From: a virus
Lineage: Duplodnaviria > Heunggongvirae > Uroviricota > Caudoviricetes
IMG/VR virus record: IMGVR_UViG_2795385844_000002
Span: 1 to 64,000 of that record
Direction: 5' to 3' (one strand)
Length of the DNA stretch: 64,000 nucleotides
Below are positions 11,949-36,234 of the stretch, piece by piece. Both the position numbers and the translations under genes were made by a program. The notes under the pieces are model-generated. The model did no database searches. It was given only the letters and a program-made list of their open reading frames with translations, and had not been told where the DNA came from. Position 1 is the first letter of the stretch; every line of letters starts with the position of its first letter.

Positions 11949-11988
11949 ATACCAATGCTATTGAGCGATTCTGGGTTCATGTGGGTAC

Positions 11989-12017
11989 GAAAAAAGCCCC
12001 CAGCTTTCGCTGAGGGC
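11989..12017 (-). terminator. rho-independent terminator (minus strand) at the downstream end of the tRNA array
   Basis: GC hairpin GCCCCCAGC/GCTGAGGGC followed on the minus strand by UUUUUU. Confidence 0.5.
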
Positions 12018-12025
12018 TCTTCGAG

Positions 12026-12099
12026 TAGTCCATGCGGGAATCAAACCCGCACCAACACCTTGAAAAGAGGGTGGTGTGCTCTCACTACACCAATGGACC
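12026..12099 (-). tRNA. tRNA-like element, non-canonical (T-loop TTTGATT, anticodon arm does not fold)
   Basis: Acceptor GGTCCAT/ATGGACT, D-arm GTGT..GCAC and a perfect T-stem GCGGG/CCCGC, but no 5-bp anticodon stem; contains TTTTCAA. Confidence 0.3.
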
Positions 12100-12105
12100 T
12101 TAGGG

Positions 12106-12444
12106 CTATTGCTCAACCCACTTGCCGGATTCGCGAACCTCAGTCTTGAGGTTCACCGGCCACATATCGCGCTCAACCTGGGCCCGCTGCAGCTCCTCAC
12201 GACCGACCTGACGCTTCACCCATAGTTGGAACTTCGGTGAGTTCGCCATACGCCTGAATGCAGACTGCTTGTTCTGCAGCTGGCTACGCTCCTCGCGCGA
12301 CTCACCCACCGCGCCAGAAGGCTCATGCGTGATCCGCACACCCGTCTCGCGCTTGTTCTGGTTTTGACCGCCCTTGCCCCCGGCTCGGAACGTGTCTACG
12401 CGACAATCCGAGAGGGTGACGGACAGTACTCGTTCTCTACTCAC
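12106..12444 (-). CDS. arfB: ArfB/ICT1-like GGQ-domain peptidyl-tRNA hydrolase (class I release factor domain)
   Basis: RAGGKGGQNQNKRETGVRITHEPSG matches the GGQ motif region of RF1-domain proteins; basic C-terminal tail. Confidence 0.75.
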   Translation of the reverse strand: MSRERVLSVTLSDCRVDTFRAGGKGGQNQNKRETGVRITHEPSGAVGESREERSQLQNKQSAFRRMANSPKFQLWVKRQVGREELQRAQVERDMWPVNLKTEVRESGKWVEQ

Positions 12445-12445
12445 G

Positions 12446-12519
12446 TCAAGTCGACCGGATTTGAACCGGCGTCCCCCGCCGTGACAGGGCGGTGCTTTAG
12501 ACCTCTAAGCTACGACTCG
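12446..12519 (-). tRNA. tRNA-Asp (GTC)
   Basis: Full cloverleaf: acceptor CGAGTCG/CGACTTG, D GCTT/AAGC, anticodon stem CCGCC/GGCGG with loop CTGTCAC, T-arm GCCGG-TTCAAAT-CCGGT. Confidence 0.8.
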
Positions 12520-12630
12520 ATAAGCCGTTTTCCGCGCGCCGGTTTTCGAGTCCGACGCGCCAGGGTGGACGGCACCCTGAGCCAACTTTCTGGGAATCAA
12601 ACCCTGGAGCTGCTTGGCCAAAACTCCCGT

Positions 12631-12703
12631 GGAGACGGTGCGAATTGAACGCGACCACACCAATCTTGCAAGGATCGGTCGCCACCTTGGAACATGCGCC
12701 CCC
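12631..12703 (-). pseudogene. degenerate tRNA-like sequence (anticodon arm resembles tRNA-Ala TGC)
   Basis: Good anticodon arm CGATC-CTTGCAA-GATTG but the T-stem and acceptor do not pair. Confidence 0.25.
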
Positions 12704-12704
12704 A

Positions 12705-12781
12705 TGGGGCCTCATCGAGGTCTCGAACCCCGCGCCTCTTCGTTACTAAGGAAGTGCTCTAGCCAGATGAGCTAATGAGGC
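12705..12781 (-). tRNA. tRNA with encoded CCA, anticodon loop TTAGTAA (AGT, Thr-like; isotype uncertain)
   Basis: Acceptor GCCTCAT/ATGAGGC then C-CCA; D GCTC/GAGC; T-arm CGGGG-TTCGAGA-CCTCG; 31:39 C.C mismatch. Confidence 0.6.
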
Positions 12782-12782
12782 C

Positions 12783-12856
12783 TGGTACCTTGCGAGAGAA
12801 TTGAACTCCCATCCTCGGGGTGTAAACCCGGTGCCCTTCCGTTGGACGAGCAAGGC
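12783..12856 (-). tRNA. tRNA-Val (TAC), CCA encoded
   Basis: Acceptor GCCTTGC/GCAAGGT then A-CCA; anticodon loop TTTACAC; T-arm GGGAG-TTCAATT-CTCTC. Confidence 0.7.
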
Positions 12857-12981
12857 ATATTGAGCTTTTGGTTGAGGGTGCCAATGCTGCAGCGAGAGGT
12901 CCCTGGCGGATGCTCTATCCGCGCCATACTTCCGGCGACAACCGAAGTCTCCACCGTAGGGTCGCCCATCCCAGGGCGTCG

Positions 12982-13056
12982 AACGAGTGACCAGATTCGA
13001 ACTGGCACGACCTGTTTGGAAGACAGGGATGCTAAACCGTTAAACATCACACTCGC
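12982..13056 (-). tRNA. tRNA-Gly (TCC)
   Basis: Acceptor GCGAGTG/CACTCGT; anticodon arm CCTGT-CTTCCAA-ACAGG; T-arm GCCAG-TTCGAAT-CTGGT. Confidence 0.75.
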
Positions 13057-13104
13057 TTGAGTATGCAGATCGTAGGCTTCAAGGGTACGAAATGCGTACT
13101 GTTG

Positions 13105-13175
13105 CACGACCGACAGGAGTTGAACCTGCTTCCACGCGGCTTAGGAGGCCGTTGGTCTGTCCGAGTTACAGTCGT
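13105..13175 (-). tRNA. tRNA-Arg (CCT), short D-arm
   Basis: Acceptor ACGACTG/CGGTCGT; anticodon loop CTCCTAA; T-arm GCAGG-TTCAACT-CCTGT. Confidence 0.45.
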
Positions 13176-13182
13176 AAGTTGG

Positions 13183-13254
13183 TAAGCCCGCAGTGAGTTG
13201 AACACTGGTTTCCGCCTTATCAGAGCGGTGTCCTAACCATTGGACGACGAGCTA
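13183..13254 (-). tRNA. tRNA-Ile (GAT)
   Basis: D GTCC/GGAC; anticodon arm CCGCT-CTGATAA-GGCGG; T-arm CAGTG-TTCAACT-CACTG; 1:72 mismatch. Confidence 0.6.
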
Positions 13255-13255
13255 G

Positions 13256-13327
13256 TGGGTCTGGTAGGACTCGAACCTACGTCTCCGACTTAAGAGGACG
13301 GAGCTAAACCATCTCAGCTACAAACCC
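13256..13327 (-). tRNA. tRNA-Lys (CTT)
   Basis: Acceptor GGGTTTG/CAGACCC; anticodon loop CTCTTAA; T-arm GTAGG-TTCGAGT-CCTAC. Confidence 0.55.
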
Positions 13328-13335
13328 ATTGTTGG

Positions 13336-13407
13336 TAGGGCGCAAGGGATTCGAACCCTCAACACGCGAGGTAAAAGCTCGGGGTGATTCCGTTTCACCA
13401 ACGCCCA
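13336..13407 (-). tRNA. tRNA-Lys (TTT)
   Basis: D GTGA/TCAC; anticodon arm CCGAG-CTTTTAC-CTCGC; T-arm GAGGG-TTCGAAT-CCCTT. Confidence 0.6.
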
Positions 13408-13410
13408 ATA

Positions 13411-13647
13411 TCAATTCATTGCCGGAAACGCCTCCCACACATGCGGATAAGCAGCGCGGTATGCGTCGCGACTGGAGCGGGTAAGAATTGTCGTCGGCTT
13501 ACACCCGATAACCACCAGCCCTTCCCTGCGCACCCTCTCCACCGCGAGCTCAGGAGTCATCCTCCTGCCGTACACAAACATCGTGCCGGTGGTCGTCTCG
13601 ACATCGAATACTTTCACGTAGTCGGCGCGAGGATCGAACTCGCACAC
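13411..13647 (-). CDS. hypothetical protein (78 aa) embedded in the tRNA array
   Basis: ORF track; GTG start; no strong RBS. Confidence 0.3.
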   Translation of the reverse strand: MCEFDPRADYVKVFDVETTTGTMFVYGRRMTPELAVERVRREGLVVIGCKPTTILTRSSRDAYRAAYPHVWEAFPAMN

Positions 13648-13751
13648 ACCGAGGTTTGAGCTCGGCGGCTTTGCCAGGTTTGCCTAGCCGACCATGCTCA
13701 GCATTTAACCGACCCGAGGCGGTCGGCACCCGTGAGGGCTGTTTGAACCGG

Positions 13752-13825
13752 TACTCCAAGAGGGATTCGAACCCACAACCTCCAGGGTCTAAGCCTGTCG
13801 CCTCTGCCAGTTGGGCTATTGGAGC
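13752..13825 (-). tRNA. type-I tRNA with anticodon TAG (Leu-codon CUA reader, short variable loop)
   Basis: Acceptor GCTCCAA/TTGGAGT, A73; anticodon loop CTTAGAC; T-arm GTGGG-TTCGAAT-CCCTC. Confidence 0.5.
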
Positions 13826-13882
13826 TTGGTGCCGATATTGCCGCGTCGGCTTTACGGTGACTCCTACTCACCGAGCGCGTCG

Positions 13883-13954
13883 AGACGAAGGCCGGGATCG
13901 AACCGGCGTGGGCCAGGGTTGCAGCCTGCCAGCTAGCCACTCACTCACTTCGCC
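13883..13954 (-). tRNA. tRNA-Cys (GCA)
   Basis: Acceptor GGCGAAG/CTTCGTC; anticodon arm GCAGG-CTGCAAC-CCTGG; perfect T-arm GCCGG-TTCGATC-CCGGC. Confidence 0.6.
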
Positions 13955-13962
13955 TTAAGCCG

Positions 13963-14127
13963 CTATTCTGCGGCGGGTGCTGCCTTCTTCGCTGGTGCCT
14001 TCTTGGCTACCGGCTTTTCTTCCACTGCGTAGTGGAAGTCCTCAAGGGTATCCATACGATCAATCAGGTCGTTTACCGCCTTGACGATGTCGATATGGGC
14101 GATGCCCGTGCGCAGCTTGTCAGTCAT
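13963..14127 (-). CDS. small hypothetical protein (54 aa) within the tRNA array
   Basis: ATG at 14127; product MTDKLRTGIAHIDIVKAVNDL...KKAPAKKAAPAAE. Confidence 0.4.
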   Translation of the reverse strand: MTDKLRTGIAHIDIVKAVNDLIDRMDTLEDFHYAVEEKPVAKKAPAKKAAPAAE

Positions 14128-14150
14128 ATTGGCCTTTCGGTGTCTGTACG

Positions 14151-14221
14151 TCCCCGTGCGCGGAGTTGAACCGCGATAACCTCGGTCACAGCGAGGGGCT
14201 CTGCCATTGAGCTACACAAGG
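14151..14221 (-). tRNA. tRNA-His (GTG)
   Basis: Acceptor CCTTGTG/CACGGGG; D GCTC/GAGC; anticodon arm CCTCG-CTGTGAC-CGAGG; T-arm CGCGG-TTCAACT-CCGCG. Confidence 0.8.
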
Positions 14222-14285
14222 TATGGCGCTGGCCAGAGCAGCATGGCATCTCTGTTTCTTCGGGCTTTGTACCGGCAGCGCTAAG

Positions 14286-14360
14286 ACCCGTTGACAGGAT
14301 TCGAACCTGCATGCGTTGCGCCTTCGTAGGGCGGTGGGCGCTCCATTGCCCAACAACGGG
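14286..14360 (-). tRNA. tRNA-Arg (ACG)
   Basis: Acceptor CCCGTTG/CAACGGG; D GGGC/GCCC; anticodon loop CTACGAA; T-arm GCAGG-TTCGAAT-CCTGT. Confidence 0.65.
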
Positions 14361-14372
14361 AGCAGGCGGTTT

Positions 14373-14388
14373 AACGTGGAGTGCCCAG
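14373..14388. repeat. 16-bp direct repeat ACGTGGAGTGCCCAGC, copy 1 (inside tRNA array)
   Basis: Identical 16-mer again at 14644..14659. Confidence 0.6.
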
Positions 14389-14498
14389 CACGGAGCAGTT
14401 TTTCGTGATGTCTCAACACGGATGGTTCTTCCAGTTGTGAACCAACAACATTCATGAGCCAGTTTCTACCTCAGCCGTGTACTGGCAACCCTCGTCCG

Positions 14499-14573
14499 TG
14501 GCGGGTACCGGATTTGAACCGGTGGTCTCAAGGTTATGAGCCTTGCGAGATGGCCGAGCTTCTCTAACCCGCT
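14499..14573 (-). tRNA. tRNA-Met (CAT)
   Basis: D GAGA/TCTC; anticodon arm CAAGG-CTCATAA-CCTTG; perfect T-arm ACCGG-TTCAAAT-CCGGT; 1:72 A.C mismatch. Confidence 0.7.
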
Positions 14574-14643
14574 ATGTATGGTGACTCATTCCGACAGGAC
14601 AGTTCGTCGCCTACCGTATCCGCGCGAGTCAACGCGACCTTTT

Positions 14644-14659
14644 ACGTGGAGTGCCCAGC
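14644..14659. repeat. 16-bp direct repeat ACGTGGAGTGCCCAGC, copy 2
   Basis: Identical to 14373..14388. Confidence 0.6.
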
Positions 14660-14698
14660 TTTTCACCAGTAGCTGCGGAACCTGGTTTCCCTTACACG

Positions 14699-14772
14699 CC
14701 GACTCTCCCCGAATCGAACGGGGGCGCACCGGGCTTCAACCGGTCGCTCTTACCTAACTGAGCTAAGAGTCG
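14699..14772 (-). tRNA. tRNA-Phe (GAA)
   Basis: Acceptor CGACTCT/AGAGTCG; D GCTC/GAGC; anticodon arm ACCGG-TTGAAGC-CCGGT; T-arm CCCCG-TTCGATT-CGGGG. Confidence 0.85.
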
Positions 14773-15066
14773 ATTGTTAGAGGCTGAGAGTACACCCGCT
14801 ATCGAGAACCTTTCGCAGCATTATGGATTCGCTGCTTCTCCAGGCCATCCCTGACCTAGTTCTCACGCCTGGTCCGTTACCGTGAACCACTCGTTATGCC
14901 GAAAGCTACTCTGCGGCTTTCCCTTCGCGATGAGATGGCCGTCTCACTGCTGCAGTACTTGCCTACAAACCGCACTCACCTTGCGGGACTATTGTGCGGC
15001 CCAGATTCCCGAGGGTCTGGGATTAAGGCGCTTTTGCTCCTCGGCAGGGGAAGGACTTTTGCTTTT

Positions 15067-15138
15067 AATTGACGACGGGACTTGAACCCGCACATCCAGT
15101 TTCCAATAACTGGTGACCTACCGTTGGTCTACGTCATT
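15067..15138 (-). tRNA. tRNA with 8-nt anticodon loop TATTGGAA (Gln-TTG or Pro-TGG-like; possible quadruplet or frameshift decoder)
   Basis: Good D (GACC/GGTC) and T arms; anticodon arm CCAGT-TATTGGAA-ACTGG is 18 nt instead of the usual 17. Confidence 0.5.
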
Positions 15139-15592
15139 CTCACAGCGGAGAATGATTTGACTAGAGACGTGCTTCCCCATGAAGTTCCGAACCCTTTTGG
15201 GGCACAGAATGCTTCACGCCTCTCGTGCTTTCGCCTGGCGGGGCTAATTACACTCTCTCTCAACCACATTGCGAGCCGTCGCCCGACGCGAGATCGATCA
15301 TGGAACACGCCCTTGCTTGCGAGGCTCGGACTCAGTTCCTTCCGTTCCACAGGGCGCTCGTTCAATAGCCTTTTCACACGCACGTACGTGATGGTGTCCT
15401 CAGCACTTTGCCGTTGGACGGGGCGTAACTCGCAACCTGGCAGCCATCTCTGACTGCTCAAGGATTGGATTGCATGGATTGCCCTTGCGGGTGGTGGGTT
15501 GTCACCCCACCTTTCACCACCTTGCGGTGGCTTATGGGCCATACCCCGAATGTCTTAACTATATCTCCCACAACAGAGTTCGTGTGGGTGAG

Positions 15593-15675
15593 CGGAGAGG
15601 CAGGTATTCGAAACCTACTGCGAACAGCGCTCCGGTTAGCAACCGGGCCTAGTCACCTAACTAGTTGCGCTCTCC
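15593..15675 (-). tRNA. tRNA-Ser (GCT), type II
   Basis: 83 nt; anticodon loop TTGCTAA; long variable arm GCGCTGTTCGCAG; T-arm TAGGT-TTCGAAT-ACCTG. Confidence 0.6.
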
Positions 15676-15754
15676 ATGGTCCACCATTTCAGCACTGACG
15701 CGATCTTCAGTGCACCTGTTCAGCCACCGTTCAGGCAGGTGGAAGTCTTTAGAG

Positions 15755-15839
15755 CGGAAAGTCGAGGAATCGAACCCCCAGGACGCACTGCCTGCCCCGG
15801 TATTCGACGCCGGTTGCCGACCATTCAGCGGGACCTTCC
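15755..15839 (-). tRNA. putative type-II tRNA (Ser-CGA-like), low confidence
   Basis: 85 nt; acceptor GGAAGGT/ACTTTCC; T-loop TTCGATT; anticodon region GTCGAAT; imperfect stems. Confidence 0.35.
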
Positions 15840-15921
15840 ATCGCCCCAGAATTCATGACGCAGCCTGGCGCACACTGCGGACAGCCAACTCGTGGCAGGT
15901 ACCTACCGGTTGACCCTAAAG

Positions 15922-15993
15922 CTGAAGACCCTGGATTCGAACCAAGAACTGCGACGTTCAGAGCGTCGTGTGTTGCCGTTACACCAATCTTCA
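15922..15993 (-). tRNA. tRNA-Gln (CTG)
   Basis: D GTGT/ACAC; anticodon arm CGACG-CTCTGAA-CGTCG; T-arm CTTGG-TTCGAAT-CCAGG. Confidence 0.75.
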
Positions 15994-16072
15994 ATGCTGA
16001 GACTGGCCTTGCGGGCGGGGGAACGTTTCTGCTTGCCGCAAGCCTTCAGTTCGTTCCACACCAGTCTCATTG

Positions 16073-16150
16073 TCTCGCCGTCAGGAGTCGAACCTGCACA
16101 CCCGAAGGAGCAGATTTACAGTCTGCGTTGATCGCCTATTCGCGACGAGA
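16073..16150 (-). tRNA. tRNA-Tyr (GTA), type II
   Basis: Anticodon arm GCAGA-CTGTAAA-TCTGC; variable arm TCCTTCGGGTGT; acceptor CTCGTCG/CGGCGAG. Confidence 0.6.
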
Positions 16151-16201
16151 TTGGAGCCAGTGCTCGGCTTCTCGCCGATTCGCATGCACACACTGACATG
16201 G

Positions 16202-16274
16202 CTGGCTTGGAAGGATTCGAACCTACACCTCGCGAGTTAACAGCTCGCTGCTCTACCAATTGAGCTACAGGCCA
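16202..16274 (-). tRNA. tRNA-Asn (GTT)
   Basis: Canonical TAGCTCAATTGGTAGAGC D-arm; anticodon arm GCGAG-CTGTTAA-CTCGC; T-arm GTAGG-TTCGAAT-CCTTC. Confidence 0.8.
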
Positions 16275-16393
16275 AGGGCGAGGGTGGCCAGTGTCAGCGC
16301 GCTTTCTGACCTGTGCGACCCTCTTGCCCGTCCTGCTTAGAGATGAGACGGAGCCGAAAACACCCGTACGGTCATCGTACGTGATGACGAACG

Positions 16394-16469
16394 TCTGCCA
16401 GGCGCGATTTGAACACGCGATCTCCTGGACCCAAACCAGGCGGGATGGCCAAACTTCCCTACAAGCAGA
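16394..16469 (-). tRNA. tRNA-Pro (TGG)
   Basis: D GGGA/TCCC; anticodon arm CCTGG-TTTGGGT-CCAGG; T-arm GCGTG-TTCAAAT-CGCGC. Confidence 0.75.
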
Positions 16470-16711
16470 TGATGGACGACACGGCCCAGGTACGGCACCT
16501 CAGGTCGGATCCTTTTTGTCGGAACCTACTGCGGGATTACCCTGCCATCCATGTGACCATCAGCATCCCGATGGCCGCGCGGAGATGTCTCTCCACATTC
16601 CCCGTACGACCGACGCTTTCCTGGAGCTACCTGTACTTGCGTATATGGTCTGACAGCCGGGGCCACACTGACTAACGAGGATGTTCTCCCTTTGCACTAC
16701 CGGCAGCCTAC

Positions 16712-16736: not shown

Positions 16737-16748
16737 ATCTTCCTCTCG

Positions 16749-17102: not shown

Positions 17103-17159
17103 ATTGAAGTATCTATATCTCTATGGAGTTTTCAAATGTCATGCCACACAAAGGCATTG

Positions 17160-17230: not shown

Positions 17231-17304
17231 ATTTCCAGATTTTCAGGCCCTGGTAGCCCCTCTTGCTGAACTAAGTCTACGACCCACCCACATGAACCCC
17301 TAGC

Positions 17305-17344
17305 GAATAAAAACGGGCCCCGATCCATTGAGGAACCGGGGCCC
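17305..17344 (-). terminator. rho-independent terminator (minus strand) upstream of the tRNA/tmRNA array
   Basis: 7-bp GC stem GGGCCCC/GGGGCCC followed on the minus strand by GUUUUUAUU. Confidence 0.55.
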
Positions 17345-17364
17345 AACGTCGAGAAAGCCTACGC

Positions 17365-20517: not shown

Positions 20518-20519
20518 AG

Positions 20520-21573: not shown

Positions 21574-21839
21574 TCGGGGGCCGCGAAGCAGTCGAGGGTC
21601 GTACCAGCGAGAAAGGCCTCGAACAGCATGTTAGTCATCTCGCCGCGCTCTTCTACGGTCTGCACCCAGACGCTCTTTGGAGGCGCTACGAGTGTGTCGG
21701 GGCCTGCGACGATTAGGAGGTAGCGCCCATCCTCCAGTGCGACAGTGAGGTGTCCGTTGGAGTAGTGGAATGGGAGCCGCGTCCCAGGTGTTTTCAAAGT
21801 TTCCATGTGTCCCAGTCTATTTCGGTAAAATGGGATCAT
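21570..21839 (-). CDS. hypothetical protein (89 aa) starting MIPFY at a motif-embedded ATG
   Basis: ATG at 21839 lies within TACCCACATGATCCC; longer upstream extensions look non-coding. Confidence 0.45.
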   Translation of the reverse strand: MIPFYRNRLGHMETLKTPGTRLPFHYSNGHLTVALEDGRYLLIVAGPDTLVAPPKSVWVQTVEERGEMTNMLFEAFLAGTTLDCFAAPE

Positions 21840-21847
21840 GTGGGTAG

Positions 21848-25172: not shown

Positions 25173-25456
25173 GCGCGAAGCTCCTCCAAGCAGCGACTAG
25201 CCATTGCTTGAACGCGGGCAAGTTGATCCACCAGATTCACGCCTCCCATGAGGCGATGCCCAACCTCATATGTTTCGAAGCGGATATCTGACAAGGCACT
25301 TCTTACTTTGTCTAGTCGGCTAGACAAAAGGTGGATCGTAGTCTGCTGTGTCGCAATGATTTCCGCCATCGTCTGAATGCTGCCATTCAGCGATGCCGTT
25401 GCGCCCCAGTCGTTTCCATCCATGGAAATAATCGTATCGACGGGATTTGGGTTCAT
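25169..25456 (-). CDS. hypothetical protein (95 aa) starting MNPNP at a motif-embedded ATG
   Basis: The ATG at 25456 lies inside GGGTTCATGTGGGTG. Confidence 0.5.
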   Translation of the reverse strand: MNPNPVDTIISMDGNDWGATASLNGSIQTMAEIIATQQTTIHLLSSRLDKVRSALSDIRFETYEVGHRLMGGVNLVDQLARVQAMASRCLEELRA

Positions 25457-25592
25457 GTGGGTGAGAAAAAGTAGAGCCCCGGTCGGCGGCGCGTGAGAGG
25501 GCGTCTAGATACATCGACCGGGGCGACTACTGGAGCGTAGCTCTACAGCAGCTACTTACATTATATAGCTATGGCGTGCAAGCCTGGGTTTG

Positions 25593-26234
25593 CTACAGAC
25601 CCAGTTCGCGGCATACCAAGCTAAAGAGCTGGCTGAAGAAGTTCGATGACTTCCCAATGCGTGCAGCCAGATCCGTGGTTGGAACGGAAGGGTTGGCAAT
25701 GATCGCGTTCAACACATCCAGGCATGCTGCGCGACTCTGATGCCCAACACGACGATGGAATACAGCGAAGTCTGTGCGAGCCGTCACCAGCTCGTGAGCC
25801 GCACGTGCCTTTTCCAGGCGGTTGCGGTAGCGGGTATCCACACCGTTGTGAGCGTGGAGAGCTTCGCCAGTCAGGGCCTCTACCGGCATGGTGATCTGCT
25901 TGATGTCAGGCCACTCGGGGCGCATCGCTGCGCGTTCAGCTGGAGTGGTCCCACCCCAGATGCCGAATTCCTCGCCATTATCCAAAGCCCAGGTACGGCA
26001 CATGTCCAGAACGGGGCAGCGTGAGCACGTGGCCTTTGCGCGTTGCTCGGCGTAGGCCACCATTTCGGTAGCCAACTCCTGAGTGACTCCATCCTCGACC
26101 AGCTCTTCCACGGTGAGAAAGTGCGACTCCTGGTCGTCAGGATCGCATACAGCTTTGCTGCGCCAATCAAGATCCAGGTCGCTGGCCGTAGGTGGGCGCT
26201 CGATCATAGCGGTCATTTGGTTGTATCCCTTCAA
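25593..26234 (-). CDS. whiB: WhiB-family transcription factor with C-terminal extension
   Basis: Four-Cys WhiB pattern AVCDPDD...ATCSRCPVLDMC. Confidence 0.7.
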   Translation of the reverse strand: MKGYNQMTAMIERPPTASDLDLDWRSKAVCDPDDQESHFLTVEELVEDGVTQELATEMVAYAEQRAKATCSRCPVLDMCRTWALDNGEEFGIWGGTTPAERAAMRPEWPDIKQITMPVEALTGEALHAHNGVDTRYRNRLEKARAAHELVTARTDFAVFHRRVGHQSRAACLDVLNAIIANPSVPTTDLAARIGKSSNFFSQLFSLVCRELGL

Positions 26235-26693: not shown

Positions 26694-26857
26694 ACAGAGA
26701 GGGTATGACAACCGGCACCCACATGAACTGCAAACGCCTCCCCGCCGATGCACAGATACCCTCCCAAGTCTCGTTTGGCAGACTGTAACCCTGGTCACAC
26801 GGGGTCTACATCTGGGGACTCGGCTTTACCAGACAACTGACTGGTTGGGTTTGCCGC

Positions 26858-28473: not shown

Positions 28474-28943
28474 TCGACCCTCTCTCTATAAATCTGGGTG
28501 ATCCATGCCCGCGAAATCTCCCTGTGCCAGAAGCGGATAGCTTCTGGGTCGGTCATATCGTCGGGTGGATACTGCTTGGGCATCTTGATGCCGAATCGGT
28601 TCTCCACAGCTTTTACGTTCGTGGTCTTCCACTGCTGCTTCATCCAATTCCGTTGGGCTGCACGCTCGTCTGCGAAAAGATCGACGTCGTCGTACCGGCC
28701 CTGCTTTAGCCAGGAATGCGCTGCTGGAACGTAGGTCAAGTCGTCCGGGTCACATGACATCGCAAAGTTGCGCGCGGACTCAATGAGCTTGGCCGGATCT
28801 TGCCCCTTGTTTTCGACCAGGTCAGCGAAAACACGCTCGGCCTCACTGATGGCAGTGTGTTTGGGATAGGCATCCCAAAACTGCCTGAAAGACCGAGCGT
28901 GTTTCTTACGCGCCTCGCCGGGGGTTAGCTTTTCGCTCACCAA
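28422..28943 (-). CDS. hypothetical protein (173 aa), possible replication accessory protein
   Basis: ORF track; overlaps the dnaB start by 52 nt. Confidence 0.4.
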   Translation of the reverse strand: MVSEKLTPGEARKKHARSFRQFWDAYPKHTAISEAERVFADLVENKGQDPAKLIESARNFAMSCDPDDLTYVPAAHSWLKQGRYDDVDLFADERAAQRNWMKQQWKTTNVKAVENRFGIKMPKQYPPDDMTDPEAIRFWHREISRAWITQIYRERVECQETESQPTTSEPSKV

Positions 28944-29371
28944 TCCGGTTCATCGTTGTTGGCGTCGCCGCCCCATGCATCTTCAGCGGGCTTCTGACGT
29001 GCACCTCCACCGCCCTTCTGCGGAGCTGCAGTGGCAAAGCGAAGGTCGGGGCCGAAGGAATCGAACTCAACTTCCAACACAGAGCGCTTCTCGCCCTCGC
29101 GGGTCTCGAAGGAGCGCTGCTTGATCTGGCCGTGGCCGATAACGCGGTCTCCGCGCGATAGGCTCTCGGCTACGTTCTCCGCGAACACATCCCAGATGGT
29201 TCCGTTCAGGAACGTGGTGTCACCGTCGACCCAGTTGCCACCCGGGTCCTTCTTCCGGGTGTTCGTCGCTACCGACACATTGACCACGGCCTTACCGCCG
29301 CCAGTAAAACGGACCTCGGGATCACGAGTCAGGGTGCCAACAACAGTGACTTCAGGAAGGGTGATGCTCAT
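28937..29371 (-). CDS. ssb: single-stranded DNA-binding protein
   Basis: OB-fold SSB signature, Gly-rich linker and acidic C-terminal tail DEPDW. Confidence 0.85.
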   Translation of the reverse strand: MSITLPEVTVVGTLTRDPEVRFTGGGKAVVNVSVATNTRKKDPGGNWVDGDTTFLNGTIWDVFAENVAESLSRGDRVIGHGQIKQRSFETREGEKRSVLEVEFDSFGPDLRFATAAPQKGGGGARQKPAEDAWGGDANNDEPDW

Positions 29372-29392: not shown

Positions 29393-29746
29393 TCAGTTGC
29401 TGGACCATGGGTCTCGTAGATCGATGTCTCTATGATATTCGGCTCCCAGTAGGTTCATGTGGGTGAACTTCCCCAGGTGGTGCTGGTATATCGGGATGGA
29501 AGCTGGCTCTTCCCAAGGCCTTACGTGATAGCCCTCAGAGTGTGCTGCGTTGGGGTTGTGTTCAATCCACCCATGGCAACCGACCGTTCCGTGTCCGCAC
29601 ACGTGGACGATGTTGTCGAGGCTCCACAGGCCTCCCTGAGACCTCTTCTTGCGGTGGTGCATAGACAGTCCACCACCGATGCCGCAACGCTCGCATAGGC
29701 CACCTGAGCGGCGTGAGACCTCTACGCGGCACTGCTTCTCGGTCAT
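29393..29746 (-). CDS. HNH endonuclease
   Basis: CERCG...HHRKKRSQGG...CHGWIEHN HNH motif; start at MTEKQ (29746), one nt overlap with the upstream stop. Confidence 0.6.
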   Translation of the reverse strand: MTEKQCRVEVSRRSGGLCERCGIGGGLSMHHRKKRSQGGLWSLDNIVHVCGHGTVGCHGWIEHNPNAAHSEGYHVRPWEEPASIPIYQHHLGKFTHMNLLGAEYHRDIDLRDPWSSN

Positions 29747-31686: not shown

Positions 31687-32078
31687 CAGAAGTTTCCTCC
31701 ACCAGTTCCGAATACTTGTGCCAGCAGTTTGGAGCGCATACCGATCGCAATCAGCTCTTTCTCAAGCGCTGACAACCGGCGTTCGCAGAGACCAAGCTGG
31801 GCATTGGCGATATCGAGGTCAATGCGCTCCTGCTCAGTCTCCTTGGCCGCGTGAGCCTTTGCCTTGCCAACAGCGCCAGTGAACGCCATCATCTGACGGG
31901 CCTCGGCTACGGCGAATCGAGTTGCGCGCCAATCCTTCTGTGCCCTATGCCAGGCAAGAATCTTGTTCCACTTCGTGATAAGGAAGTTGACCTTATCTAA
32001 CTCGCGGTCGATATGGTCGGGCGTGAGATCCGTGTATGTGTAGTCAACCAGCTCGTCGCTCATTCGACCTCGTACCAC
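31686..32078 (-). CDS. hypothetical protein (130 aa)
   Basis: ORF track. Confidence 0.5.
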   Translation of the reverse strand: MVRGRMSDELVDYTYTDLTPDHIDRELDKVNFLITKWNKILAWHRAQKDWRATRFAVAEARQMMAFTGAVGKAKAHAAKETEQERIDLDIANAQLGLCERRLSALEKELIAIGMRSKLLAQVFGTGGGNF

Positions 32079-32269
32079 TCAGTGACGGTGCGCTGCAGCA
32101 ATTTCAGCTCGGGATCCTTACCTACATAAGCACGCGCCTGGGCCTCAGTGAGCTCGCCAACCTCGTCGCGGCAGGCAACCTCTCCGCATGGGTACGAAAA
32201 GCTCCACTCTACGTAGCACTTCGGCAGCGGCTTGTTCTGCGCTTCGAGCTGCTCCTGCACGCTACTCAT
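32060..32269 (-). CDS. hypothetical protein (69 aa)
   Basis: ORF track. Confidence 0.45.
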   Translation of the reverse strand: MSSVQEQLEAQNKPLPKCYVEWSFSYPCGEVACRDEVGELTEAQARAYVGKDPELKLLQRTVTEWYEVE

Positions 32270-32784
32270 CCGATGCCGTCCACAATGCCAAGGGCAACAG
32301 CTTCATCCATCGCCAAATACCATTCCTTGTCCCGCATGCGCTCACGGAACTCGTTGTAAGGCAGCTTGCAACGGGTGTGGGCTTTGATGTAGCGCGCGAC
32401 CCATTTCTCGCTGAACTCAAGCTCATTGCGCACCTGAGCCATCGTCTGGTCGTGAAATGTCAGTAGCGGCTCGTGGATGTAGATGTAGCCCATCTGACCA
32501 CCTAGACGTACATCGCCAGCCTGGAGGATCAATGAGGCTGCAGAAGCGGCACGCCCGCGCACACGAGTGGTGATGTGGTGTCCCCCGCCACCGGCCTCAG
32601 ACATTCGCACGAGCTCGTCATAGATGGCGTCCCCGTGCTCCATAGATCCGCCTGGTGAGTTGATGATCAACTCAATTGGACGCCCTGGCTGGTCAACACC
32701 AATGTCACGCAGGAGGTTGAGGGTCTTGCGTGCGCCCTTCTCGTCAATCTCGCCATGTAGCCCCAGCTCTGCCGGTTCCATCAT
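32266..32784 (-). CDS. ClpP-like serine protease (S14 family)
   Basis: INSPGGS active-site region and downstream AAS.ASLIL ClpP-like motif. Confidence 0.7.
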   Translation of the reverse strand: MMEPAELGLHGEIDEKGARKTLNLLRDIGVDQPGRPIELIINSPGGSMEHGDAIYDELVRMSEAGGGGHHITTRVRGRAASAASLILQAGDVRLGGQMGYIYIHEPLLTFHDQTMAQVRNELEFSEKWVARYIKAHTRCKLPYNEFRERMRDKEWYLAMDEAVALGIVDGIG

Positions 32785-33638
32785 GCAACTCGCTTCAGTT
32801 CAGGGACGACACGCAGCTTGCGGGCCCACTGTCCACCACGAACAATGTCGCGGCCACGCGCTAGGGGAACCTCGTAGATCCCCCACCTCCATTTCCCGCG
32901 CTTATCGGGAGTCTGGGGACAATGGAACATCAACGCCGTCTCGGTATCGCAGTCATGGTCAGCGAATTCTGCGGTGCCATCGCCGTTCGGCCAGAAGTCG
33001 GCCCATGGGATGTCTTGCTGGACAACTGAATCCTGATACAGCTGACCCATCACGTAAAGCGCCAACTGAGCACAGACACCCATGCGGTACTGGTCGTCCT
33101 TGCCGGTCTTGATGTCCACCATGTAGCGGACTCCATTCCATTCGACAATGCGGTCAGCAGAACCGGCAGCGCGTAGCGTAGACACTCGGCCATCGGGCAG
33201 CTCCATACGATCGTTCGCCTGTAGGAAGACCTCCCGGGCCAAGAACGTCATCCCGGGAATGGATGCGATGCACTCGTGATACCCATCCAGAATGGGCTTC
33301 ATATCCTCATCGACCAGCGACCAGTCGAGGTTCCCCTCTTCCAGGACTCCGGTGAAGTCGTGAATCGAGGTTCCACGCGATGACTTATTCATCGCACCGC
33401 CGATAGTCTCGGCCTGGTTAATGACTTCCTTGATCTCGCCCTTGCTCGAGTCCCAGCTACCGCCCTTGGCGATGATCGCCTTCATGCGGTTGAGCAACTG
33501 AGGGTTCTGCGCGAGACCGAACATGGCGTTGGCCTGATGCCAGGCAAACAACCCGTCCCCCGGCTTGTCCAAATCCTTAGCGAGAGTTGAGCAACGCGAG
33601 TATGCGACCCTTCGTCCCCCATCGGGGGTGTACAGCAT
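32781..33638 (-). CDS. Cas4/RecB-family PD-(D/E)XK exonuclease
   Basis: MVDIKTGKDD...QLALY nuclease motifs; C-terminal Cys cluster CDTETALMFHCP. Confidence 0.6.
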   Translation of the reverse strand: MLYTPDGGRRVAYSRCSTLAKDLDKPGDGLFAWHQANAMFGLAQNPQLLNRMKAIIAKGGSWDSSKGEIKEVINQAETIGGAMNKSSRGTSIHDFTGVLEEGNLDWSLVDEDMKPILDGYHECIASIPGMTFLAREVFLQANDRMELPDGRVSTLRAAGSADRIVEWNGVRYMVDIKTGKDDQYRMGVCAQLALYVMGQLYQDSVVQQDIPWADFWPNGDGTAEFADHDCDTETALMFHCPQTPDKRGKWRWGIYEVPLARGRDIVRGGQWARKLRVVPELKRVA

Positions 33639-33679
33639 GGGTCGCTGGTACCGGTCCCGGGGGATTGCCCAGTCAGTAA

Positions 33680-34303
33680 TTAGGCACTCGCAAGCAGCTC
33701 GAAGTGGGCGGCAGTCGCAGTCAGAGCGTCCACATCCGTGGAGCTCACCACGGCACCGCCATCTGGGTACTGCTCGGCGAACCAGACCTGCACGTCCTTC
33801 GACGCCACACCGGCAGCCTTGGCTGCAGCCTTCACGCGCGCCAGCGCCTCTGCGGCCTCAGGGTTGGCGTTCGTCTTCGGGGCAGCCTTGCGTGGCGCGG
33901 CCTTGGCGGAAGCAGCGTTGCCATCATCATCGACGTCGGCCACCAAGCCGAGTGCTGCCATGTAGGCGTAGCGGCGTGCGTAGGTGATCGCGGAGCCGTG
34001 AGCCTGTGGGTCGTTCTTCACTGGGTGAAGGACCATCGTGGAAGAGATCTGCTCGCCGCTCTCGTGGATGACAACAGTCTTGAGCGTGTCGTAAACCTTG
34101 CCATCGGCGTTGACATAGGAGGGCTGCTGGGAGACAGCAAGACCATGCTTAGCCAGCACCGGCTGAGCCTCACGCATCACCGCCGGAAGGTCGGCATACT
34201 TGGACTTGAAGAACGGGTTCGCCGTGTCCTTGGCGATCACCCCGAACTCGGACTGTGCAGCAACGAGGGCCTCTGCGAGGGTTGAGTGCTTGAATTCGCT
34301 CAC
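33680..34303 (-). CDS. erf: ERF-family single-strand annealing protein
   Basis: PFFKSKYADL ERF signature; Ala/Lys-rich C-terminus. Confidence 0.8.
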   Translation of the reverse strand: MSEFKHSTLAEALVAAQSEFGVIAKDTANPFFKSKYADLPAVMREAQPVLAKHGLAVSQQPSYVNADGKVYDTLKTVVIHESGEQISSTMVLHPVKNDPQAHGSAITYARRYAYMAALGLVADVDDDGNAASAKAAPRKAAPKTNANPEAAEALARVKAAAKAAGVASKDVQVWFAEQYPDGGAVVSSTDVDALTATAAHFELLASA

Positions 34304-34370
34304 CAGTCAGTAGCTCCTATGTAGAGAAAAACGAACAGAACGACTCCCCATGGCCACCATGGGATTTGAA

Positions 34371-34598
34371 TCACTTAGAGACAGCTTCAAAGGACTTGGC
34401 GACTAGCCAGACCATCCCAGCAACGAGCCCGATCGCCACGGCGAGCGCAATCGGGCCCCAGAGGGGGGCAGTGACCCACCACCACGACCAATCCTGAACC
34501 GGGTTCTCCCAAGGGCAGATTTTCATCATGGCGAGAATGCCGAAGAGAATCATTCCGGCTAGACCCGAAATCGCCTGAGAATTACCAGAATCACTCAC
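34371..34598 (-). CDS. small membrane protein
   Basis: C-terminal TM helices; start uncertain (GTG at 34598 or ATG at 34553). Confidence 0.35.
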   Translation of the reverse strand: MSDSGNSQAISGLAGMILFGILAMMKICPWENPVQDWSWWWVTAPLWGPIALAVAIGLVAGMVWLVAKSFEAVSK

Positions 34599-35053
34599 GC
34601 TGGTGTCACTTTCTTCTGAGCCTGTAGGACTGTGCCGTGACTCCGGGCAACCCCTCGGATAAGTTCGACAACCTGTCCCTGAGTGCGGCTCGGGTCGTCG
34701 TTGTAGGCCGACACATCCCCGCCGAATCCAGCCGGGATGGCGCGCGAGATCAACCGGTGGGCACCCCACCAGGCGCGCATATCGTCCCGAGCAGCCGACT
34801 TACCCACCGCAGCGTCCAATGCCCCAAGGATGTCGTAGCGCACAGCGTCACCGACACGCTCGTGTCGCACACCCTGTGTCCAACCATTTGCTAGCAGACG
34901 CGCTGCAATCTGGAGAGTTGCCGCTACAGCCTCAGGATCATCCAGCACCACAACGTTGTTCTTGCGGGCGAGACGGCGCAGCCAGTTAGCAGTAGACATA
35001 GCTGCAATTTTATCAACTACCCACATGATGCAGTTTGCTGGCGAACCATCCAA
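34595..35053 (-). CDS. hypothetical protein (152 aa)
   Basis: ORF track. Confidence 0.45.
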   Translation of the reverse strand: MDGSPANCIMWVVDKIAAMSTANWLRRLARKNNVVVLDDPEAVAATLQIAARLLANGWTQGVRHERVGDAVRYDILGALDAAVGKSAARDDMRAWWGAHRLISRAIPAGFGGDVSAYNDDPSRTQGQVVELIRGVARSHGTVLQAQKKVTPA

Positions 35054-35346
35054 CTATTGTCACGAGCCTTGTCTAGATCCCATGGTTCAGCACCCATATT
35101 CCGTAGCTCACGACACACCCTGGTGCGCTGAATCTTGAGTGTCAGCACGGCGTCAGCGTCAGATTCCCTGTGCCGCTCACGAATTGACTCATCAAGCAGG
35201 AAGAGGTCGAGAAGCTTCTCGTTCCTACTCTCCAGAAACTTGGCTGCGGATTCACTCACGCATACCAGGCTGAACCCATACACCGACTTGTTCGTGTGGG
35301 TATGAGCGCCGAGGGACACGACCCCCTCGGCGGCGCGACTGCGCAC
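35017..35346 (-). CDS. hypothetical protein adjacent to the divergent regulatory region
   Basis: ORF track; start uncertain (GTG at 35259 possible). Confidence 0.35.
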   Translation of the reverse strand: MRSRAAEGVVSLGAHTHTNKSVYGFSLVCVSESAAKFLESRNEKLLDLFLLDESIRERHRESDADAVLTLKIQRTRVCRELRNMGAEPWDLDKARDNSWMVRQQTASCG

Positions 35347-35742
35347 TCAGGTCGACAGGAAGGGATACTACTTTGCTCGGCCTCCCTGAGTCTCGAAACC
35401 CATTCTACTGATCCTGGCTTAGATGGAATCGCACAACGGAAATAATGAACCATTTCCGCAGGTCAGGATCTTTCACCCACATGAACCCCTGCGCCATGTC
35501 GTAGCCTCCTAAAAGGAGAGTGCGAACGCAGTGAGCACGCACCTCCCGCTAGGGAGGCCCACGCCGGATTGGCGTGGCTGCCCGAAGGGCATCAACCTCC
35601 AGACCGCAGCGTCCCCACTTGAGCATGGTTCTCGGTGAAATGAATAACCCTTGCAGTCAAGGTATCTCACGTTGAGGTGGAGGTAGTCGTTACGTAAGTC
35701 GGGAACGGTACTAGAGCGCGTGCGCGCGAGCCCGCTACCCAC
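35347..35742. promoter_or_regulatory. divergent intergenic regulatory region containing two copies of the ACCCACATGAACCC motif
   Basis: About 400 bp non-coding between minus- and plus-strand gene blocks; motif copies at 35474..35482 and 35737..35745. Confidence 0.5.
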
Positions 35743-36234
35743 ATGAACCCGAAATGCGCTGCAAGACTTTGTGACATGGGAATTGAAGTACAGAAGGCTC
35801 GCGGGAATGAGATCATCTACCGCACTCCGAACGGCCCTATCCATATCAAGGCTTGGGACGACAACGCGGGAATCTGGTGCCTATCGCTCAATGCTCCCGA
35901 CCGATACCCGAACGGATCGCGCAAGCAAACTACCCGCACTCTGAACATCGGGCCCCAGAGCCACGCGGATATTGAGGCGTTCGTCCAGGCTTTCGCCGTG
36001 ATCTACGAAGCCGCGGGCAGATCGAAAGCCCCTCGCAAGCTCGGCGGTCTGGACTGCGATGAAGCGCGTGATGGCGCGGTGTGGGCTGACTCGGATGAGG
36101 GATTCCCTTTTCACTACCGATTCCGTGGTGGTAACTGGGAATACCTCGCTCTCGCTGGGGAGAGTAGCTGGAAGGTACTGGACGACCCGTACTCGCTTAT
36201 CGGCTACGGCCCCTATGTCGAGGTGATCGCGTGA
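35743..36234 (+). CDS. hypothetical protein (163 aa) starting MNPK; C-terminal domain paralogous to the product of 8612..9448
   Basis: ATG embedded in the conserved motif; C-terminal LDCDEARDGAVW...YRFRGGNWEYL...PYVEVI. Confidence 0.6.
   Translation: MNPKCAARLCDMGIEVQKARGNEIIYRTPNGPIHIKAWDDNAGIWCLSLNAPDRYPNGSRKQTTRTLNIGPQSHADIEAFVQAFAVIYEAAGRSKAPRKLGGLDCDEARDGAVWADSDEGFPFHYRFRGGNWEYLALAGESSWKVLDDPYSLIGYGPYVEVIA

Follow-up and report, generated by a model that had tools for sequence, protein, structure and literature searches.

The box ACCCACAYGAAC, a 12-mer that recurs along the 64-kb window (the whole stretch of DNA analysed here), ends in its sense copies 14-15 nt upstream of a SigA-type TANNNT -10 hexamer. 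The window is an M. abscessus prophage of Cluster MabI, related to Cluster M mycobacteriophages, and the MabI genome is organised like those of Cluster M. The arrangement of box, hexamer and start codon gives us good confidence that the box acts as a promoter element and that a leaderless start follows it. As an explanation of the whole we favour, with less assurance, about eight promoters that would carry the box in their -35 region and be read by a phage factor of the gp86 type. This reading predicts concrete promoters and start sites in a family of M. abscessus prophages that matters clinically, and would correct start-codon calls that differ between deposited records.

Copies and distribution of the box

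The core CCCACATGA is present in nine exact copies in the 64-kb window compared to 0.83 expected, with a maximum of 4 in shuffled sequence, which bears out the claim of an earlier sequence-only reading that the motif is non-random. Exact copies of YACCCACATGAWCC number seven, against 0.00 expected from 100 shuffles of the window, and the box is the commonest 10-mer and 12-mer of the window. A C or T mostly stands before it and a C after it. Together with two further copies that carry one mismatch (ACCCACACGAAC) and are conserved among relatives, the total comes to 11, of which 8 are sense and 3 antisense to local transcription. All fall within 11.9-35.8 kb, among the early genes, within the tRNA array or in the divergent control region, and the 25-kb virion-gene block has no copy except a one-mismatch coding coincidence at 51762-51773. 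The related prophages T49-2 and GD54-2 contain 10 and 11 exact ACCCACATGA cores respectively, each with one or two one-mismatch copies in addition.

Eight copies had been listed previously, and all eight exist on the strands reported. The copy given as 35474-82 is one base off (ACCCACATG occupies 35475-35483), and the list omitted the exact copy at 26717-26728 (plus strand) and the one-mismatch copies at 15578-15589 and 35290-35301 (both minus strand). The complete set is as follows, together with two neighbouring features.

11975..11986, minus strand: class 1 (promoter-type) copy (ACCCACATGAAC) directly after the tRNA-array terminator; -10 TAGCAT at 11955-11960, ATG at 11946-11948
11991..12022, minus strand: intrinsic terminator (hairpin and U-run) closing the tRNA array, with the 11975-11986 copy directly downstream
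15578..15589, minus strand: class 1 copy with one mismatch (ACCCACACGAAC), within the tRNA array; -10 TATAGT at 15558-15563
17286..17297, plus strand: class 2 copy, antisense to local genes, between a terminator (17314-17345, minus strand) and tRNA-Trp
21834..21845, minus strand: class 1 copy (ACCCACATGATC); -10 TAGACT at 21814-21819, predicted leaderless ATG at 21804-21806
25451..25462, minus strand: class 1 copy; -10 TACGAT at 25431-25436, predicted leaderless ATG at 25421-25423 (84 codons)
25593..26234, minus strand: gp86, a WhiB domain fused to a C-terminal WhiA-CTD-like region, the candidate box reader
26717..26728, plus strand: class 2 copy, antisense, in the space that separates the small WhiB and resolvase genes
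29453..29464, minus strand: class 1 copy in the 3' end of an HNH gene, upstream of the SSB gene (28937-29371); -10 TATCAT at 29432-29437
35019..35030, plus strand: class 2 copy (ACCCACATGATG), antisense, where genes 65 and 66 meet
35290..35301, minus strand: one-mismatch copy (ACCCACACGAAC) oriented towards the rightward early operon; prophiGD54-2 has it perfect
35475..35486, plus strand: class 1 copy in the divergent control region; -10 TAGCCT at 35502-35507
35737..35748, plus strand: class 1 copy; -10-like AAGACT at 35763-35768, predicted leaderless ATG at 35776-35778

The terminator at 11991-12022 folds with a dG of -25.1 kcal/mol (z -4.76), and none of 200 shuffles folds equally well. A conserved hairpin at 35307-35332 (dG -26.4, z -3.1) precedes the 35290 copy, and the same layout of hairpin and box is found at position 39412 of Rey. 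The 15578 copy sits about 330 nt upstream of the GOLLD RNA and is identical in T49-2 and GD54-2 despite differing upstream flanks; the 26717 copy is invariant in seven distinct MabI sequences, its downstream flank diverging. The 25451 copy lies directly downstream of the WhiB-fusion gene.

Promoter geometry and leaderless starts

A TANNNT hexamer at an offset of 13-16 past the 11-mer is present at 6 of the 11 window sites, where the background is 0.003 per position (P=1.4e-9). Those six are five exact-box sites and the one-mismatch site at 15578. Hexamers at the same offset are found at 7/11 sites in GD54-2, 7/11 in T49-2, 6/12 in Rey, 6/11 in Bongo, 3/5 in L091 and 5/8 in L092, and the box/-10 arrangement is likewise present in L215 and L216. 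Since the box ends 14-15 nt before TANNNT, its span is about -39 to -26. Canonical -35/-10 promoters are scarcer than expected (1 compared to 7.4). In M. smegmatis, 79 % of promoters carry ANNNT at -6 to -13 with TANNNT preferred, no -35 consensus exists, leaderless transcripts make up 24 %, and the leaderless start rule for mycobacteria is an A or G at +1 that belongs to the start codon (PMC6448022).

At four of these window sites, with 35737 and its AAGACT counted in, an ATG follows 6-7 nt past the hexamer, and the homologues of T49-2 genes 64, 87 and 97 have it at 7 nt. The sequence upstream of the predicted start has the TANNNT or ANNNT at 6-13 nt that characterises SigA-type leaderless promoters. 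These downstream ATGs coincide with starts that others have annotated, namely those of gene 64 and RtcB in T49-2, genes 80 and 91 in GD54-2 and gp56 in Rey. The ATG at 11946-11948, 6 nt past its hexamer, opens a 37-codon ORF, and its homologue is the annotated RtcB start (65883) in prophiT49-2. The ATG at 21804-21806 opens 78 codons homologous to T49-2 gene 97 and GD54-2 gene 91, and in GD54-2 the start is annotated at the downstream ATG (54875), as it is for the homologue of the 25421 ORF (50920). The ATG at 35776-35778 opens 152 codons homologous to T49-2 gene 64, for which the same ATG is the annotated start; the equivalent ATG, at 38887, starts gp56 of Rey. The transcript predicted from the 35475 site opens with a highly conserved AAAGGAGAGTGCGAACGCAGTGAGC.

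Comparison of 7-10 distinct MabI sequences leaves a footprint at these sites in which the box is invariant and the spacer variable, the T, A and final T of the -10 are invariant and its centre free, the 6-7 nt that lead up to the ATG are hypervariable and everything from the ATG onward is conserved. The hexamer of the 21834 site, for example, reads TAGACT, TACACT or TAAACT, with only its centre variable. At the 25451 site the 7 nt preceding the downstream ATG vary among eight sequences and the sequence past the ATG is invariant.

The sequence-only reading had suggested a start at the ATG embedded in the box, with transcription and translation both beginning at its A and yielding leaderless MNP or MIP proteins and micro-ORFs. 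The frames are as it described them (95, 163 and 89 codons, MNPESLNSIGI* and MNP*), so that three long ORFs do open from the box ATG in the window, and the T49-2 annotation places the starts of genes 87 and 97 there. However, no TANNNT is found 6-8 nt upstream of the box ATG. At the gene-64 site a stop ends its frame after 9 codons in prophiT49-2, prophiGD54-2 has it out of frame, L014 too has the frame closed or shifted, and the ATG itself is ACG in the MabI sequences L011 and L016; at two other sites it is ACG in all genomes. The codons between the two ATGs vary non-synonymously (IPFY/NPGC/NPVC; IIS/ITH/ITY/ILF), and the homologous boxes of five other lineages, Rey and Bongo included, have no ATG. 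We rejected the box ATG as a conserved start because relatives show a stop, a frame shift or ACG in its place; this version is largely refuted, and we give it almost no chance of being right. The box's own ATG, 32-33 nt before the invariant downstream ATG, is coincidental. What holds of the regulatory signal proposed earlier is its asymmetry and its tie to predicted transcription starts and leaderless genes; the embedded ATG as start signal does not hold.

As promoters, the roughly eight box sites would drive the non-structural transcription units of the MabI prophage: both arms of the divergent region, SSB and the replication genes, those behind the WhiB fusion, the DnaQ block, and one unit each within and after the tRNA array. 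Host RNA polymerase with SigA would use the -10 hexamer, and a factor encoded by the phage, not SigA region 4, would read the box.

Some copies depart from this layout. Two sense copies have an imperfect -10 (35737, with AAGACT) or no clean -10 at the class 1 offset (35290). The three conserved antisense copies also have no -10 at that offset, as seen at 26717, and a pure promoter model leaves them unexplained. On the minus strand a conserved TAGACT (17274-17279) lies 6 nt past the 17286 copy.

The start-associated sequences (SAS) of Cluster K are repeats that hold the ribosome-binding site and directly precede start codons. They were considered as a parallel and set aside, the box having no SD sequence and standing 32-33 nt before the conserved ATG.

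Box variants in related phage lineages

Five other box sequences occupy homologous genome positions in related phage lineages, with one and the same architecture. The homologous sites of Rey and Bongo carry TCCTGTAATCAC, three metagenomic lineages bear three further boxes, and the -10 spacing is unchanged in all of them. Neither Rey nor Bongo contains ACCCACATGAAC, and the window has no TCCTGTAATCAC. At the divergent-region sites the flanks of MabI align with those of Rey or Bongo and the box is replaced: the surroundings of the 35475 copy match Rey 39167 and Bongo 36977 with the box itself swapped. Homologous boxes also precede SSB (Rey 45889, Bongo 43779, L091 6733, L092 5866, L215 2826), and the 35019 copy has its positional homologue at Bongo 37867 (TTCTGTAATCGC+AGGTCAG). 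The same spacing with different boxes suggests a lineage-specific promoter element of the -35 region.

Cluster M phages have conserved repeats CR1 to CR4, with CR3 and CR4 in the right arm according to the passage of PMC7953290 that cites Pope et al. 2014 (J Virol 88:2461). From its positions and sequence context the box is probably the MabI counterpart of one of the published repeats, by inference CR1 or CR2. The repeats of Rey, Bongo and PegLeg share with it the genome architecture, a short asymmetric unit in about 10 copies confined to non-structural regions, and the positions themselves: in the divergent regions, ahead of SSB and of DnaQ, behind the WhiB gene and on the flanks of the tRNA array. 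The geometry to the -10 is that of TCCTGTAATCAC in Rey and Bongo. A right-arm repeat containing an SD sequence, CACACGGAAGGGATAC here and CACACGGAGAAGGGA in Rey, matches the location which that passage gives for CR3 and CR4. The differences are the sequence, ACCCACATGAAC here versus TCCTGTAATCAC, with only the outer CC...AC in common, and the direction of the two copies on either side of the tRNA array, which are inverted relative to Rey and Bongo. The Cluster M repeat would then be one of at least six interchangeable boxes sharing a single geometry.

What may read the box

One alternative is that the box is the operator of an immunity repressor, which in the lysogen would occupy the -35 region of every early promoter, with the promoter-less sites acting as roadblocks, much like Cluster A operators and stoperators. 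Promoters would then need the -10 hexamer alone, and mycobacterial promoters do work without a -35 consensus (PMC6448022). An asymmetric box of 12-14 bp in about 11 copies, mostly co-oriented with transcription, suits an operator, as does the strict conservation of the three antisense promoter-less copies by terminators or gene junctions. Subclusters M1 and M2 share a box and are reportedly homoimmune, which we count on this side. A repressor annotation is absent from every Cluster M or MabI record examined, and the location of the repressor has been described as unclear (PMC8092301). Against an operator, the -10 spacing is fixed within 1 nt in six lineages, as expected of an element that contacts RNAP and unneeded for a repressor site, and a scan of 33 window proteins gave no DNA-binding-domain repressor candidate and did give a putative RNAP-docking HTH protein. 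The Cluster A stoperator has a 13-bp consensus, GGTGGMTGTCAAG, that is bound by the immunity repressor. Like these sites (those of L5 gp71), the box is short, asymmetric, multicopy, mostly oriented with transcription and variable in sequence between lineages. Its sequence is unrelated to the stoperator consensus, as the sequence-only reading had noted. The resemblance which that reading saw to scattered stoperators fails on the fixed 14-15 nt distance to the TANNNT hexamer; stoperators have no fixed relation to a -10, are far more numerous and have a known repressor. We consider the operator explanation unlikely on balance, while noting that a box-binding repressor and a promoter element are compatible and not mutually exclusive.

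It is also conceivable that the phage exploits a host signal, the box being the -35 element of an alternative sigma factor or the site of a host transcription factor. The box differs between M. abscessus prophages and M. smegmatis phages and is common to M1 and M2, which have one host. However, the associated -10 is the housekeeping TANNNT rather than an ECF-type element, and conserved host sigma factors would not account for as many as six boxes among closely syntenic phages. When one genome per species was scanned with a 14-mer, a weak test, there were only isolated chance matches and no regulon-like clusters. We regard a host factor as very improbable.

For the phage-read promoter element that we prefer, gp86 is a tentative candidate reader based on its predicted fold. 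Its WhiB domain has four Cys and a GxWGG turn, with C30, C70, C73, C79 and G91-W93-G94-G95 invariant, and its C-terminal region has a long helix and HTH like those of the WhiA C-terminal domain. Foldseek matches include 8cwt, 6ono and 8dy9_H, a fold like that of Wbls bound to SigA region 4. Every lineage with the box/-10 architecture has the fusion gene, in syntenic position. The WhiB domain would dock on SigA region 4, and the box at the -35 position would be read by the WhiA-CTD-like, sigma-4-like HTH. Because the box overlies that position, SigA region 4 would be displaced or share the site. The gp86 operon is itself headed by a box-type promoter, which implies that basal expression is needed first.

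The leaderless sepX promoter of Streptomyces is activated by WhiB on SigA region 4 together with the WhiA-CTD reading a -35-like motif, the WhiA motif lying upstream of the -35 element (Lilic et al. 2023, PMC10243135). As in that system, a Wbl domain of gp86 would sit on SigA region 4 and a sigma-4-like HTH would give specificity at poor -35 elements; gp86 is predicted to contain both folds. It differs in being one polypeptide without WhiA's homing-endonuclease-like domain, and the box ACCCACATGAAC overlaps the -35 whereas the Streptomyces motif, GACAC, lies upstream of it. With both in one protein, gp86 would be the WhiA/WhiB co-activator in single-chain form, its function resembling the sigma appropriation by AsiA and MotA of T4. 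T4 middle promoters have a housekeeping -10 and a MotA box at about -30 to -35 that replaces the -35, with the factor tethered to sigma region 4. The parallel is by analogy only, a phage-specific box in the place of the -35 with a housekeeping -10; box, host and protein folds differ.

Should gp86 turn out to read the box, it would be the first Wbl protein to carry its own sequence-specific, sigma-4-like head for reading DNA and would offer a simple way to study how Wbl proteins give promoters their specificity, and the six box/helix pairs would be orthogonal promoter and activator parts for mycobacteria. More speculatively still, Cluster M and MabI phages may reprogram host RNA polymerase through a single-chain WhiB-WhiA-CTD fusion whose Fe-S WhiB domain holds SigA region 4, whose sigma-4-like HTH takes over -35 recognition and whose helix has co-evolved with the box in each lineage, which, if true, would provide modular, orthogonal 'private' phage promoters and a natural minimal WhiA/WhiB activator. 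The putative recognition helix of gp86 does differ between box lineages, a match that is confounded by phylogeny because every protein diverges between lineages. M1, M2 and the L214 clade keep E-[YW]-x-N in this helix, although the proteins are only 45-64 % identical, and CCTGTAATC(A/G)C is carried by M1, M2 and the single L214 site found.

Copies of the box in the window and in related phages

The window is 95.7 % identical to prophiT49-2 (T49-2), 94.5 % to prophi86-1 and 82 % to prophiGD54-2 (GD54-2), all Cluster MabI prophages of M. abscessus with a Cluster M-like organisation (PMC8092301; PMC9934374). The rightward early genes are on its minus strand, as is an array with 20 tRNAs, a tmRNA and an odd tRNA-like call of anticodon 'tg'. 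From the divergent region at ~35.35-35.75 kb, genes 64-59 extend along the plus strand, and virion genes occupy 38.6-64 kb.

The repeated 12-mer that we call the box is a real regulatory element. Shuffles of the window predict 0.00 occurrences of the pattern YACCCACATGAWCC and 0.83 of the core CCCACATGA; 7 and 9 are present, and the box core is the commonest 10-mer and 12-mer in the window. All eight copies listed by the sequence-only reading are present on the strands given, one of them with its coordinate off by a base, and the Met-Asn-Pro and Met-Ile-Pro reading frames at the motif are as it described. That count had overlooked one exact and two one-mismatch copies.

Further and antisense copies of the box
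26717-26728, plus strand: ninth exact copy
15578-15589, minus strand: one-mismatch copy ACCCACACGAAC, conserved in relatives
35290-35301, minus strand: one-mismatch copy ACCCACACGAAC, conserved in relatives
17286, 26717 and 35019, plus strand: class-2 copies, antisense, conserved, without promoter

Exact ACCCACATGA cores number 10 in T49-2 and 11 in GD54-2, and each prophage also has 1-2 copies with one mismatch; the sites match those of the window, except for one in the left divergent region, beyond the window limits. Full-text literature searches with the box sequences found nothing relevant, and an exact 14-mer scan restricted to one genome per species returned isolated single chance matches.

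No MabI box was found in the phages Rey (Cluster M2) and Bongo (Cluster M1). Their commonest 12-mer is TCCTGTAATCAC, and it occupies sites homologous to those of the MabI box: in the left and the central divergent region, upstream of SSB and of DnaQ, downstream of the long WhiB gene and at both ends of the tRNA array. In the central divergent region the flanks ccgcaggtcagg ... agtgcgaacgcagtgagc can be aligned across MabI, Rey and Bongo, with the box exchanged between them. The two copies flanking the tRNA array are inverted in MabI relative to Rey and Bongo. Cluster M phages are reported to have conserved repeats, CR1-CR4 (Pope et al. 2014, as described in PMC7953290), and the box is most probably the MabI-specific version of a Cluster M promoter repeat. 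Aligning the MabI box with the Rey box in reverse complement (TCATGT vs TCCTGT) was rejected, since the forward register is set by the flanks and by the -10 geometry. The sequence AGGTCAGG, found alongside the Rey and Bongo box, shows no enrichment in the window (26 matches vs 21 expected).

Homologues of the long WhiB protein were used to locate syntenic early regions in metagenome assemblies. Each such region has its own box and keeps the spacing to the -10 hexamer.

Boxes of metagenomic relatives (L-numbers are sequence handles)
L091: TCCCGTCTTACC, gap to TANNNT of N15, then 7 nt and ATG
L092: tCCCGGTAGAC, gap to TANNNT of N16
L215: CCAGTTT(C/G)AC, gap to TANNNT of N16
L216: CCCGATT(C/G)AC, gap to TANNNT of N16
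L214: CCTGTAATCGC, Cluster M type

When the boxes are aligned by their distance to the -10, each opens with CC, about 25-26 nt ahead of the hexamer, and closes with AC; the 6-7 central bases are lineage-specific and fall where a -35 hexamer would be. The most distant phage to carry a WhiB-HTH fusion, Kumao, has right-arm repeats but no box with N14-16-TANNNT geometry. The IMG/VR contigs L017 and L022-L025 yielded only the palindrome TTGCGSCGCAA, mostly within conserved coding sequence and unrelated to promoters.

Proposed promoter geometry and the start codon

Of 11 window sites, 6 have a TANNNT hexamer that begins 14-15 nt 3' of the 11-mer CCCACATGAAC, against a background of 0.003 per position (binomial P 1.4e-9). 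The same spacing is found at 7/11 sites in GD54-2 and 7/11 in T49-2 and, after CCTGTAATCAC, at 6/12 sites in Rey and 6/11 in Bongo. A TANNNT hexamer placed 6-13 nt before the start is the signature of a mycobacterial SigA -10 element; a -35 consensus is lacking in mycobacteria, where roughly one transcript in four is leaderless (PMC6448022). The early region is poor in canonical -35/-10 promoters (1 observed vs 7.4 expected). At the tRNA-array end, a strong intrinsic terminator (dG -25.1, z -4.8) lies directly upstream of the 11975 copy, giving the order terminator, box, -10, start. A terminator upstream of the 25451 copy was rejected, the segment folding no better than shuffles (z +1.0).

Start codons at proposed box promoters
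11946, 21804, 25421 and 35776: four window sites with ATG 6-7 nt past the -10 hexamer
21804-21839 and 25421-25456, minus strand: starts disputed between records
35743-35778, plus strand: start disputed between records

The embedded ATG had been proposed as a start codon, possibly of leaderless transcripts; both the reading frames at the gene-64 site and the footprints across relatives contradict this. At that site the frame from the box ATG ends after 9 codons in T49-2 and L014 and differs from the gene frame in GD54-2, and L011 and L016 have ACG in its place; in all of these sequences, an ATG 32-33 nt downstream opens a gene of 141-152 codons. Annotators placed the start of T49-2 gene 64 and RtcB, GD54-2 genes 80 and 91, and Rey gp56 at the downstream ATG. 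Public records disagree: two genes, 87 and 97 of prophiT49-2, start there at the box ATG but in prophiGD54-2 at an ATG 33 nt further on. Footprints from 7-10 distinct MabI sequences show an invariant box, a free spacer, a -10 with T, A and last T fixed and a variable centre, 6-7 hypervariable nt preceding the ATG (tatttcc, tactcat, tacttac, tctattt), and perfect conservation from the downstream ATG on. Boxes of other lineages lack an ATG. Taken together, these results indicate that the in-frame MNP/MIP extensions are a by-product of the fixed 33-nt promoter geometry. A leaderless start at the box ATG is essentially refuted, and on sequence comparison we favour the downstream ATG at the disputed starts.

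A conserved stem-loop at 35307-35332 (-), CCGAGGG-GGTCGTGT-CCCTCGG (dG -26.4), lies directly upstream of the box facing the rightward early operon; Rey has the same combination of hairpin and box at 39360-39423.

Candidate reader and role of the box

The gene for gp86, a long WhiB protein, is syntenic in every lineage with the box architecture.

25593-26234, minus strand: gp86, 213 aa, Pfam WhiB domain (E 2.6e-18)

Its C-terminus gives a weak HTH_24 match, and structural matches of its N-terminal domain in the AlphaFold model are WhiB1, WhiB3 and WhiB in complex with SigA region 4. In the published WhiA/WhiB complex, WhiB is docked on SigA region 4, the WhiA N-domain merely bridges WhiB to the WhiA C-terminal domain, and the latter recognises its motif in the manner of sigma region 4 at a -35 element; sepX, the target promoter, is leaderless (PMC10243135). 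The protein gp86 looks like a one-chain version of this pair, with the difference that the WhiA motif lies upstream of the -35 position whereas the MabI box overlies it. Full-length WhiB fusions in the phage collection are confined to Cluster M and MabI and, distantly, Kumao. The putative recognition helix differs with each box lineage (SSNFFSQLFS, RGEY(V/I)NSMLR, SRPWFNDLLR, KRAWFSDVLR, SANWFNTVTR, SDGWFSDMMT). Homologues from M1, M2 and the L214 clade share 45-64 % identity and keep E-[YW]-x-N; the CCTGTAATC(A/G)C box is present in M1, M2 and the single L214 site found. No other DNA-binding domain was seen among 33 window proteins scanned. The evidence for gp86 as a candidate reader is suggestive and falls short of proof: helix-box covariation is confounded by descent, and the box lies over the -35 position. 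The new part is the proposed link of the box to a fusion of WhiB with a WhiA C-terminal domain.

Alternatively, the box may be an immunity-repressor operator overlapping the -35 of every early promoter. Several observations agree with this: the asymmetry of the box, the conservation of three antisense copies that have no promoter, the lack of an annotated repressor in the Cluster M and MabI records examined, and the sharing of one box by M1 and M2, which are reportedly homoimmune. The fixed spacing, however, favours an element contacting RNA polymerase, and the two roles could coexist. Recognition by a host alternative sigma factor is unlikely because the -10 is of the housekeeping type and there are six different boxes.

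A conserved TAGACT/TAAACT at 17274-17279 (-), 6 nt downstream of an inverted box and ~45 nt before tRNA-Trp, may be the -10 of a tRNA-array promoter. The box would then lie in the spacer of this putative promoter, which suggests repression rather than activation.

Other RNAs, genes and repeats

A full-length GOLLD RNA (Rfam RF02032) lies within the tRNA array at 14781-15224 (-) and includes the odd 'tRNA-???(tg)' / 'tRNA-OTHER' call. GD54-2 (L005 22181-22624), Rey (L003 18409-18832) and Bongo (L009 16107-16520) carry it too, with scores of 182-216 bits across prophage and Cluster M phages vs a gathering score of 150. The GenBank records do not annotate it, Rey having tRNA-Ser and CDS 107 there, and no paper connecting GOLLD with mycobacteriophages came up in a full-text search.

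The predicted transcript of the 35475 promoter (35510-35735, +) begins with AAAGGAGAGTGCGAACGCAGTGAGC, which is near-invariant across MabI, Rey and Bongo, whose proteins share just ~35 % identity, and is followed by several GC-rich hairpins. This region may represent a leader or a small RNA that has been conserved; it has no Rfam match.

A frameshifted RtcB 3' of the 11975 copy was rejected, there being no RtcB match at 9000-12100. In contrast to prophiT49-2 and GD54-2, the region after the 11975 promoter (9445-11948, -) has, in place of the RtcB RNA ligase, small ORFs, a SLOG/YAcAr-domain gene and a PTH2 peptidyl-tRNA hydrolase, with a mosaic junction a few codons past the predicted leaderless ATG (ATGAAGGAATT...). 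In the right arm, the gene at 454-867 (+) weakly matches ArdA antirestriction protein (E 4e-5, under the Pfam cut-off) and that at 965-2044 (+) matches DUF932 (E 3e-56).

A second repeat family, CACACGGAAGGGATAC, is found at 510-525, 983-998 and 2193-2208 (+), with shorter GAAGGGATAC copies at 4559, 35359 and 37039 (+) and 26223 (-). It includes the Shine-Dalgarno-like GGAAGGGA and lies directly before the start codons of small right-arm genes, one copy for example being followed by ATG at 2211. It is the MabI counterpart of the Rey/Bongo right-arm repeat CACACGGAGAAGGGA, which is probably CR3/CR4.
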